Positions 47,369 to 47,484 of a DNA stretch of 64,000 nucleotides are shown piece after piece (positions within the stretch are counted from its first letter, which is position 1; the number at the start of each line of letters is the position of its first letter). The notes below the pieces were generated by a model. The model was not told the origin of the DNA and did no database searches. It saw only the letters and a program-made list of their open reading frames with translations. Both the position numbers and the translations under genes were made by a program. The stretch lies in IMG/VR virus record IMGVR_UViG_3300027741_000020. One strand, written 5' to 3'. The stretch is from a virus.

Positions 47369-47484
47369 ACAGCAGTGGCGGAAACGGATAATGTCGACAT
47401 AAATCCGTAAGTTAGACGTAGGGCTCTTCGGAGGTCAGTTAAATAGGTAACTAAACTATATAGGTGCAAATCCTATCTGCTGTA
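47369..47484 (+). ncRNA. tRNA-shaped RNA 3 (UUCG in place of anticodon)
   Basis: Acceptor ACAGCAG/CTGCTGT; T-arm ATAGG-TGCAAAT-CCTAT; D-loop insert ACGGAT...ATCCGT; CTC-TTCG-GAG; variable arm AGTTA/TAACT. Confidence 0.75.

Follow-up and report, generated by a model that had tools for sequence, protein, structure and literature searches.

The tRNA genes of phages are usually read as spare parts, kept for codon usage or for anti-defence. How, then, should one read a phage RNA gene that has the acceptor and T arms of a tRNA, a capped hairpin where the anticodon would be, and a further hairpin in its D loop? Such an element, 116 bases long, lies in a stretch of 64,000 nucleotides of viral DNA (IMG/VR record IMGVR_UViG_3300027741_000020), called here the window. 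Judged from its sequence and those of its relatives, the RNA is probably a tRNA mimic, one that does not read codons and that possibly pairs with itself.

The window is AT-rich (~31% G+C), with every gene on one strand. By gene content, its source is a large T4-like or near-jumbo phage: it encodes a family-B DNA polymerase, a clamp loader, GroEL, an endolysin, CobS/CobT-like ATPases, and Mom, together with a large sugar-biosynthesis block, an AAA_33 kinase with an Rnl1-type RNA ligase, and a DNA ligase. CheckV estimates for related fragments imply a genome of ~160-190 kb. The DNA runs that contain this stretch are freshwater metagenomes; among GenBank phages, neither the element nor the surrounding 15 kb has a DNA match. 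The element belongs to an RNA island spanning 44.2-47.5 kb of the window, which also holds a tRNA-Gly and a tRNA-Glu. Its surroundings are as follows.

44413-44963: tmRNA of ~550 nt with a large insertion (Rfam, 64.7 bits; no ARAGORN call)
46012-46415: Rfam-modelled part of a GOLLD RNA, ~1 kb upstream of the element
46555-46953: ORF of 132 aa between tRNA-Gly and tRNA-Glu (no Pfam match; weak PHROG 'integrase' match)
47154-47236: sub-threshold tRNA-like match (25.5 bits, Rfam tRNA model)
47295-47368, + strand: conserved 5' leader of 74 nt, with the hairpin GUAGAUG...CAUCUUCUAC
47369-47484, + strand: the element
47893-48372: cRec (PF20274) gene, downstream of the element
58083-58469: small AAA_33 P-loop kinase gene, directly upstream of the Rnl1 gene
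58660-59748: Rnl1-type RNA ligase gene
59751-60863: ATP-dependent DNA ligase gene, after Rnl1

Some of these neighbors deserve a remark in their own right. In related phages, the tmRNA tags end ALAA or AVAA, and the tmRNA sits just past a small membrane-protein gene. Contigs from four lake metatranscriptomes cover 45558-46358, the GOLLD region, with up to several hundred-fold word depth and with variants from related phages among them; GOLLD-type RNAs therefore appear in lake RNA libraries. The ORF at 46555-46953 is conserved in two related loci (L030 and L071; related loci are given here by such numbers), in a placement that recalls the homing-endonuclease genes of phage tRNA clusters. The kinase and the Rnl1 at 58083-59748 look like a split tRNA repair pair in the style of T4 Pnkp/Rnl1.

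The element itself can be dissected base by base.

47369-47484, + strand: whole element, 116 bases
47369-47375, + strand: 5' strand of the acceptor stem, ACAGCAG, 7 bp with CUGCUGU at 47477-47483
47376-47383, + strand: U8, G9, 5' strand of the D stem (GCG), G13, A14, and A15; the tRNA-Leu signature UGGCGGAA
47384-47408, + strand: hairpin inserted in the D loop at nucleotides 16/17, with a 13-nt loop at 47390-47402
47384-47389 and 47403-47408, + strand: stem of the insert, ACGGAU paired with AUCCGU
47391-47400, + strand: 10-nt palindrome AUGUCGACAU in the apical loop of the insert, core GUCGAC at 47393-47398
47409-47419, + strand: remainder of the D loop (AAGUUAG), A22, and 3' strand of the D stem (CGU)
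47421-47436, + strand: capped hairpin GGGCUC-UUCG-GAGGUC in place of the anticodon arm, containing a single G.G mismatch; tetraloop at 47427-47430
47437-47457, + strand: long variable arm, AGUU/AACU, bulge AAA, UAG/CUA, and a GUAA tetraloop at 47447-47450
47460-47476, + strand: T arm, AUAGG (47460-47464), loop UGCAAAU, and CCUAU (47472-47476)
47477-47485, + strand: 3' strand of the acceptor stem, A73 (47484), and C74 (47485), without an encoded CCA

The initial annotation had pointed to perfect acceptor and T stems, to CUC-UUCG-GAG at the anticodon position (47424-47433), and to ACGGAU...AUCCGU enclosing a self-complementary 10-mer in the D loop, and each of these holds to the base. Of the canonical tRNA features, the element has the 7-bp acceptor stem, the 5-bp T stem with its 7-nt loop, the D stem, U8, and A14. 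The combination of U54-U55-C56 in the T loop with G18 G19 in the D loop is absent; the D loop has a single G before UUAG, and position 55 of the T loop is G where tRNAs have U. The Rfam tRNA model (RF00005) aligns with the element from end to end at 27.0 bits, against a gathering score of 29, and to do so must allow for 29 inserted nt in the D loop and for a long variable region. ARAGORN makes no tRNA call on the window's element. Complementarities of 3-5 nt can be drawn between the loop of the D insert and that of the capped arm in the window, L046, and L035; such a pairing was dropped, being inconsistent across members. The lone sequence folds unremarkably (z = -1.5), and the case for the element rests for this reason on its homologues.

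The entry point to these homologues was the small membrane-protein gene that follows the element, which led to 14 related phage loci. The window and two relatives detectable by BLAST served to build a covariance model, and with it the element was found in 7 of the 15 sources searched, the window counted. Pattern scans of IMG/VR and of JGI metagenomes added members, and the model was rebuilt as R2. This model places 20 copies (19 distinct sequences, 109-131 nt long) at 75-124 bits, all in contigs of uncultured freshwater phages; in the next tier, where a genuine tRNA-Leu and further tRNA-Leu-like RNAs are found, no score exceeds 39 bits. Three of the 16 metagenome matches to the three-block pattern (L072, L080, and L084) fell outside the family by R2. 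The matches to a two-block pattern were mostly due to chance and were removed by the covariance model, while all 24 IMG/VR matches to a 16-mer around the tetraloop were chance. In 185,579 prokaryote genomes, the three-block pattern found no copy.

Most members were fetched with patterns that demanded AGTGGCGGAA, GTTAGACG, and GTGCRA, and the apparent invariance of these blocks is thus inflated; the loops lie outside every pattern. The members fetched by protein, L031 and L026, deviate slightly in the pattern blocks. The same caution applies to GUUAGACG, the counterpart of GGUAGACG in tRNA-Leu, which is invariant in 18 of 19 distinct members, most of them fetched by a pattern demanding it.

Pairing is a different matter. 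Among the 19 distinct sequences, the modelled pairs are formed in 93.9% of cases, against 42-46% in slid controls; compensatory double changes occur in 24 of 31 pairs, and none of 500 shuffles attained the observed pairing. An alignment fitted to the model favors pairing, of course; the margin is large nonetheless, and every helix contributes to it. The acceptor stem pairs in 99.2% of cases across the family, with double changes in five of its seven pairs, the T stem in 100%, with covariation in four of five. The stem of the D-loop insert is present in every member and covaries in all six of its pairs. Both helices of the variable arm covary as well, around a loop that reads GUAA in 17 of the 19 distinct sequences, GAAA in the remaining two. 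That the + strand is the RNA strand follows from G.U pairs such as G10.U25, which 15 of 19 sequences have.

The cloverleaf, with its two elaborations, is under selection as RNA. What had been proposed from the letters alone, a selected tRNA-shaped RNA without a usable anticodon whose paired insert homologues should keep, is borne out by this covariation. Sequence conservation tells a similar story. The copy in L079 is 100% identical; that in L030 is 93% identical, where the flanking genes are 68-81% identical as DNA and 62-70% as protein. The element also occurs in phages whose proteins are merely 36-65% identical. By the sequences collected here, it is one member of a conserved RNA family in the tRNA/tmRNA islands of large freshwater phages.

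From what did the family arise? Its sequences identify the source as a type II tRNA, tRNA-Leu. Retained are the D arm GUGGCGGAA...UAGACG, A73, the long variable arm with its GNRA cap, and the T arm. In E. coli leuW, GGAGUGGCGAAAUUGGUAGACGCACCAGA...UCUGG precedes a variable arm capped by GCAA. The family consensus reads GGAGUGGCGGAA-[hairpin]-NNGUUAGACGY-A-UACCAG...CUGGUA, followed by a variable arm capped by GUAA. The string UGGCGGAA, unchanged in nearly all members, is identical in leuW, and the remnant of the anticodon stem also matches leuW and phage tRNA-Leu genes. The true tRNA-Leu genes of related phages have the same D arm and a GNRA-capped variable arm; this comparison was made by eye, as a MAFFT alignment with true tRNA-Leu misaligned the inserts. 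When R2 is run on eight T4 tRNAs, tRNA-Leu comes top at 30 bits and tRNA-Ser, the other type II tRNA, second. Relative to tRNA-Leu, the family carries five changes.

First: a hairpin of 21-27 nt stands in place of D-loop nucleotides 16/17
Second: the first G of G18G19 is gone, and position 18 is variable
Third: U55 has become G in all members except L030
Fourth: the variable arm is lengthened into two helices around a bulge of 2-5 nt
Fifth: the anticodon loop is gone

The helix at the anticodon position persists and covaries, with a cap that differs by lineage.

UUCG: the window's lineage
GAUG or UAUG: 4-nt caps
GUGA, GUAA, or GCAA: GNRA caps
GUAAAAU: 7 nt (L033 has a 7-nt loop)
AUUUYGUG: 8 nt (the L025 type)
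An extension of ~30 nt

The expectation that homologues would keep a tetraloop was thus borne out just loosely: a capped hairpin is kept, and UUCG itself is confined to the window's lineage. Because the cap measures 4, 6, 7, 8, or ~30 nt in different lineages, decoding is excluded for the family on the sequences at hand; the orthologues do not share a 7-nt anticodon loop in which position 33 is U and position 37 a purine.

We turn to the second elaboration. The apical loop of the insert is A/U-rich, and near its center stands a palindrome containing G and C.

GUCGAC: window, L030, L035/L076, L033, and L083
GCCGGC, within a perfect 14-nt palindrome: L077, L078, and L081
UCCGGA: L049
CCGG: L025 and L046
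AUCGAU, within a 14-nt palindrome: L061 and L074
GUAC, within a 10-nt palindrome: L026
CUAG: L060 and L070

A palindrome of at least 4 nt is found in 10 of 11 insert types, one of at least 6 nt in eight or nine; it is 4 nt only in L025 and L060, and the insert loop of L031 has none. Palindromes are enriched over shuffled loops. If the loop is scored for pairing with itself, 79% of cells form pairs; slid controls reach 9-52%. The central pair, loop positions 1/4, is U-A in 11 sequences and C-G in six. L083 differs from its close relatives L077, L078, and L081, with which it has a long extension of the capped arm in common, by an exactly symmetric replacement, GUCGAC to GCCGGC (U to C and A to G). 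The independent events are few, since several lineages inherited GUCGAC by descent; they amount to at least two switches from U-A to C-G, and to five or six palindrome types.

Symmetric changes of this kind fit loop-loop homodimerization. A single RNA might, of course, use a palindrome in another way. The family could be real and its members monomeric, the palindrome serving either to extend the insert stem, closing on a 4-nt loop, or as a site for a dimeric protein, with no self-association of the RNA. An extension of 3-5 bp with a UCGA, GUAC, or CCGG loop can be folded in the window, L061, L026, and L077, and L031 manages with no palindrome at all. However, in 10 of 11 insert types the four nucleotides that would form the loop of such an extension are themselves self-complementary (UCGA, CCGG, GUAC, or CUAG), positions 1/4 among them switch from U-A to C-G as a pair, and L035, L033, and L049 lack a stable extension. 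Extension of the stem alone does not explain the palindromes, because UCCGGA in L049 cannot close into a hairpin. Residues in a hairpin loop need no complementarity, and CCGG in L049 and L025 cannot fold back on itself; this favors selection for pairing between molecules. A monomeric mimic is accordingly a serious possibility without being a probable one.

The preferred reading has the palindromic core in the A/U-rich insert loop pairing with the same loop of a second molecule, as the palindromes and their symmetric replacements suggest. The product would be a kissing loop or an extended duplex, giving in either case a dimer with two-fold symmetry. Cofold energies show just that a dimer is possible, and the energies of extended duplexes were not counted as support because any hairpin favors dimers. 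The initial annotation had proposed dimerization through the palindrome; most lineages, with palindromic loops and symmetric compensation, agree with it, and L031, with no palindrome, does not.

How might such an RNA be made? In the window, 47295-47486 (leader and element together) is 93% identical to L030 and ~92% to L075 and L079, where the flanking genes fall to the range given above. The leader possibly holds a promoter or a processing hairpin. A part of it, 47311-47365, recurs at other sites in L037 and L031. A sigma-70 scan found no strong promoter just upstream of the element in the window. The leaders of other lineages carry TTGACA-N17-TAATTA, or the hairpin GCUAA-GUAA-UUAGC ending 2 nt before the 5' end of the RNA. 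Directly upstream of most members, the TTGACA-like box, 17 nt, and TAATTA overlap this perfect hairpin.

L025, 3229-3268: TTGACA-like box and hairpin
L026, L033, L035, L046, L049, and L060: the same, at the same position
L061, L070, L074, and L076: the same, at the same position

The overlapping signals may serve as a promoter from which transcription begins at the element, or else as a leader hairpin. At the other end, the next tRNA begins 5 nt downstream of the element in L025, L026, L030, and L031, and a protein gene follows directly in many members. Every member has A73 and then C74, like the genuine tRNAs of the same phages; the full CCA is encoded in L035 and L046 only. The acceptor/T-arm minihelix, A73-C74, and the 5-nt spacing to the next tRNA are the grounds for proposing maturation of the tRNA kind: the element would be transcribed together with neighboring tRNAs, excised by RNase P and trimming of the 3' end, and then given its CCA. 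One lake metatranscriptome (X9) yielded a single contig of 231 nt, at a depth of 2.4, with zero differences to 47251-47481; this is a weak hint of expression, as carry-over of DNA is possible. No contig from three further RNA runs (X10, X11, and X20) touches the element; the coding flanks are uncovered in all four runs too, and missing coverage carries no weight as evidence.

Maturation might even be all that the element is for. Here, it would be punctuation or a scaffold, a signal for RNase P and 3'-end processing that cuts the polycistronic island and stabilizes what flanks it, with the excised RNA functionless. The element does belong to a tightly packed series of RNAs adjoining tRNAs or tRNA-shaped units, and the same phages have several further tRNA-Leu-like scaffolds with other inserts. 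A minihelix would suffice for this purpose, however, whereas conservation with covariation extends to the insert stem, the core of its loop, the capped arm, and the bulged variable arm; further, a protein gene is what directly follows the element in many members. We hold this explanation to be rather improbable.

The preferred reading, taken whole, is that of a matured, non-decoding mimic of tRNA-Leu shape, probably dimeric, which would engage a factor that reads the tRNA body; given the sequence evidence, we would lend it about as much belief as doubt. The mature RNA may mimic the shape of tRNA-Leu or of type II tRNAs in general. Its partner would be a factor, from host or phage, that recognizes the body, elbow, or acceptor of a tRNA rather than its anticodon, and that the RNA would titrate or recruit; candidates are LeuRS, a defense nuclease that targets tRNA, and an RNA-repair enzyme. 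The initial annotation had put the RNA forward as a candidate decoy of anticodon nucleases, synthetases, or EF-Tu. A Pth2-like gene (PF01981) had zero matches in five related records, where control genomes were matched, and the ORFs around the RNA island of the window have no match to Pth.

Bacterial LeuRS is indifferent to the anticodon and the variable arm, and depends on A73, A15:U48, and contacts at the elbow; in E. coli, its determinants are A15:U48, G18:U55, G19:C56, and U54:A58 (PMC9976931). The family keeps A73, A14, A15, U48, C56, and U54/A58. G18 and U55 are absent, and G19 can be assigned solely by alignment to L068. Leucylation of the RNA is possible and, to judge from these positions, doubtful, because the G18:U55 elbow contact that E. 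coli LeuRS needs has been lost.

A more specific version of the preferred reading can be sketched. Here, the RNA would be a homodimeric mimic of tRNA-Leu joined elbow to elbow by its kissing loop, matured and perhaps leucylated by enzymes of the host, acting as a bivalent decoy or adaptor for an oligomeric host factor that reads the shape of type II tRNAs, such as a tRNA-cleaving defense enzyme or LeuRS; a broader corollary has the tRNA-Leu body displaying RNA modules. This version is unlikely, and it is put forward tentatively.

The genes nearby suggest another partner. In L077, L078, L081, and L082, the distance from the element to a downstream cRec gene is 5-110 nt; in the window's lineage it is ~400-1400 nt. 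Two of the closest cases are these.

L078, 3269-3694: cRec gene, starting 5 nt past the element
L081, 688-1101: cRec gene, starting 5 nt past the element

The repair set of kinase, Rnl1, and cRec places the element in a context of conflict over tRNA damage, although other lineages are without the cRec neighbor. One may go further and make the RNA a cofactor of repair, a tRNA-like partner of cRec, the kinase, or Rnl1, much as YrlA accompanies Ro and RtcB. In its favor, cRec adjoins the element in the four loci named and falls within 1.4 kb of it in the window's lineage, the window encodes the kinase and Rnl1, and cRec is predicted to process RNA ends with 2',3'-cyclic phosphates and is linked to RNA ligases (PMC7824862). 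Against this, no cRec is found within 4 kb downstream in L025, L026, L031, L033, and L035, no Ro/TROVE protein was seen, and adjacency could reflect nothing other than a shared region of early or auxiliary genes. The cofactor explanation is, for us, a distinctly improbable one.

GOLLD, encoded 1 kb upstream, offers a partner of a different sort. Fourteen copies of it assemble into a cage through kissing loops and A-minor contacts, and it has been suggested that such cages contain tRNAs (PMC12286853). An element exposing a GNRA loop and a palindromic loop, with the Rfam-modelled GOLLD at 46012-46415, could be imagined as partner or cargo of such a nanocage. Yet GOLLD accompanies the element only in the lineage of the window and L030, being absent from seven other element-bearing records (all of them fragments), and GUCGAC, which has no second occurrence in the RNA island, finds no counterpart there. 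This makes the association very improbable.

Two explanations can be set aside quickly. That the element is a working tRNA, with CUUCGGA as a 7-nt loop and the anticodon UCG for Arg codons, or some other unusual decoder, is barely credible: the Rfam alignment does place CUUCGGA as an anticodon loop with U33 and G37, and loops of 7 and 8 nt do occur in L033 and the L025 type, but neither length nor sequence of the loop is conserved, of the five stem pairs in the 7-nt register one is a mismatch and two are G.U, where the tetraloop reading closes cUUCGg with three Watson-Crick pairs, neither G55 nor the D-loop insert is typical of tRNAs, ARAGORN is silent on the window's copy and on a relative gives a partial, ambiguous tRNA with a four-base anticodon that starts inside the D insert, and the scaffold bears identity marks for Leu, not Arg. 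The tRNA-Arg(UCG) assignment was rejected on the loop variation, the weaker stem register, and the Leu marks. Equally hard to credit is a decaying tRNA-Leu pseudogene decorated by a palindromic insertion of selfish DNA, a footprint as found near homing-endonuclease genes, for which the ORF at 46555-46953, 'integrase'-like by PHROG and placed between tRNAs, might be adduced, but which is contradicted by compensatory changes in every helix and by an element more conserved than its flanking genes and present across phages with proteins as divergent as noted above. The D-loop insert may well have begun as an insertion of selfish DNA.

The element has company. The same phages carry further, distinct tRNA-Leu-like RNAs, scoring 22-39 bits with R2, with acceptor, D, and T arms intact; their inserts differ, measure 20-80 nt, and sit either in the D loop or in the anticodon/variable region. 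The acceptor AGUCAGG/CCUGACU is common to many of them.

Window: 44272-44400 and 47154-47236
L027: 3321-3427
L034: 1167-1273 and 2154-2278
L029: 2897-3024
L058: 5815-5901, 6066-6191, and 6331-6428
L064: 4579-4704
L068: 490-651
L081: 509-667
L078: 3703-3861
L054: 581-699

Two of these, L064 4579-4704 and L058 6066-6191, have a D-loop insert with a GNRA cap and, in the T arm, the loop UUAGAGU, where A replaces C56. A56 of this T loop, with GUUAG in the D loop, may form a U19-A56 pair in place of the G19-C56 pair of the elbow. In these phages, the tRNA-Leu body seems to serve as a scaffold of general use.

Why does this matter? Strong selection has here preserved in a phage a tRNA-Leu body incapable of decoding, with an added arm whose tip is mostly self-complementary. 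If the element does dimerize, it would be, as far as we know, the first natural tRNA-shaped RNA with a dedicated dimerization loop, and would offer a simple model of phage tRNA mimicry directed against host factors that read shape. Several tRNA-Leu scaffolds with differing inserts suggest a natural counterpart to the engineered 'tRNA scaffold' used for RNA expression. Defined small RNAs are, in any case, added to the GOLLD/tmRNA islands.

How does the element compare with systems already known? Rfam 15 has no family for it, and a full-text search of the literature found no description. Its nearest likeness is, of course, tRNA-Leu, with which it shares the 7-bp acceptor stem, U8, a 3-bp D stem with G13.A22, GUGGCGGAA and UAGACG, A15, U48, the long GNRA-capped variable arm, the T arm of 5 bp and a 7-nt loop, A73, and residence in a tRNA array with 5-nt spacers. 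It differs by having no 7-nt anticodon loop, a hairpin of 21-27 nt for nucleotides 16/17, no G18, G for U55, and a longer, bulged variable arm, and by scoring 27 bits in Rfam where the cut-off is 29.

YrlA and the bacterial Y RNAs of Ro-RtcB operons, which have a tRNA-like domain, are likewise non-decoding tRNA mimics beside RNA-repair genes. YrlA, however, ends on a stem that binds Ro, not on an acceptor stem; the element matches no Rfam Y-RNA family, and its surroundings showed no Ro protein.

The classic precedent is rnaC and rnaD of T4 (species 1 and 2), small stable RNAs of the T4 tRNA cluster, of unknown function (PMC3014915). They resemble the element in being small RNAs inside a phage tRNA cluster, and rnaC has at its end the tRNA-like T arm GGGUUCGAAUCCC, which a terminal helix closes. 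Their internal architecture is different, with neither a tRNA-Leu D arm nor a palindromic loop; R2 gives 9.1 bits on rnaC and nothing above 4 bits on rnaD, and homology is thus not indicated.

The loop itself resembles the dimerization initiation site of HIV-1: a stable stem carries an open, A-rich loop of 11-15 nt, with a 6-nt palindrome containing G and C at its center. Like palindromic kissing loops in general, including the quaternary loops of GOLLD and ROOL (PMC12286853), it keeps its palindromy by symmetric substitutions. Unlike the HIV-1 site, the loop of the element sits on a tRNA scaffold, and its dimer is a predicted one. Among tRNA mimics, the element is distinctive in joining a type II tRNA-Leu scaffold to a conserved palindromic loop.
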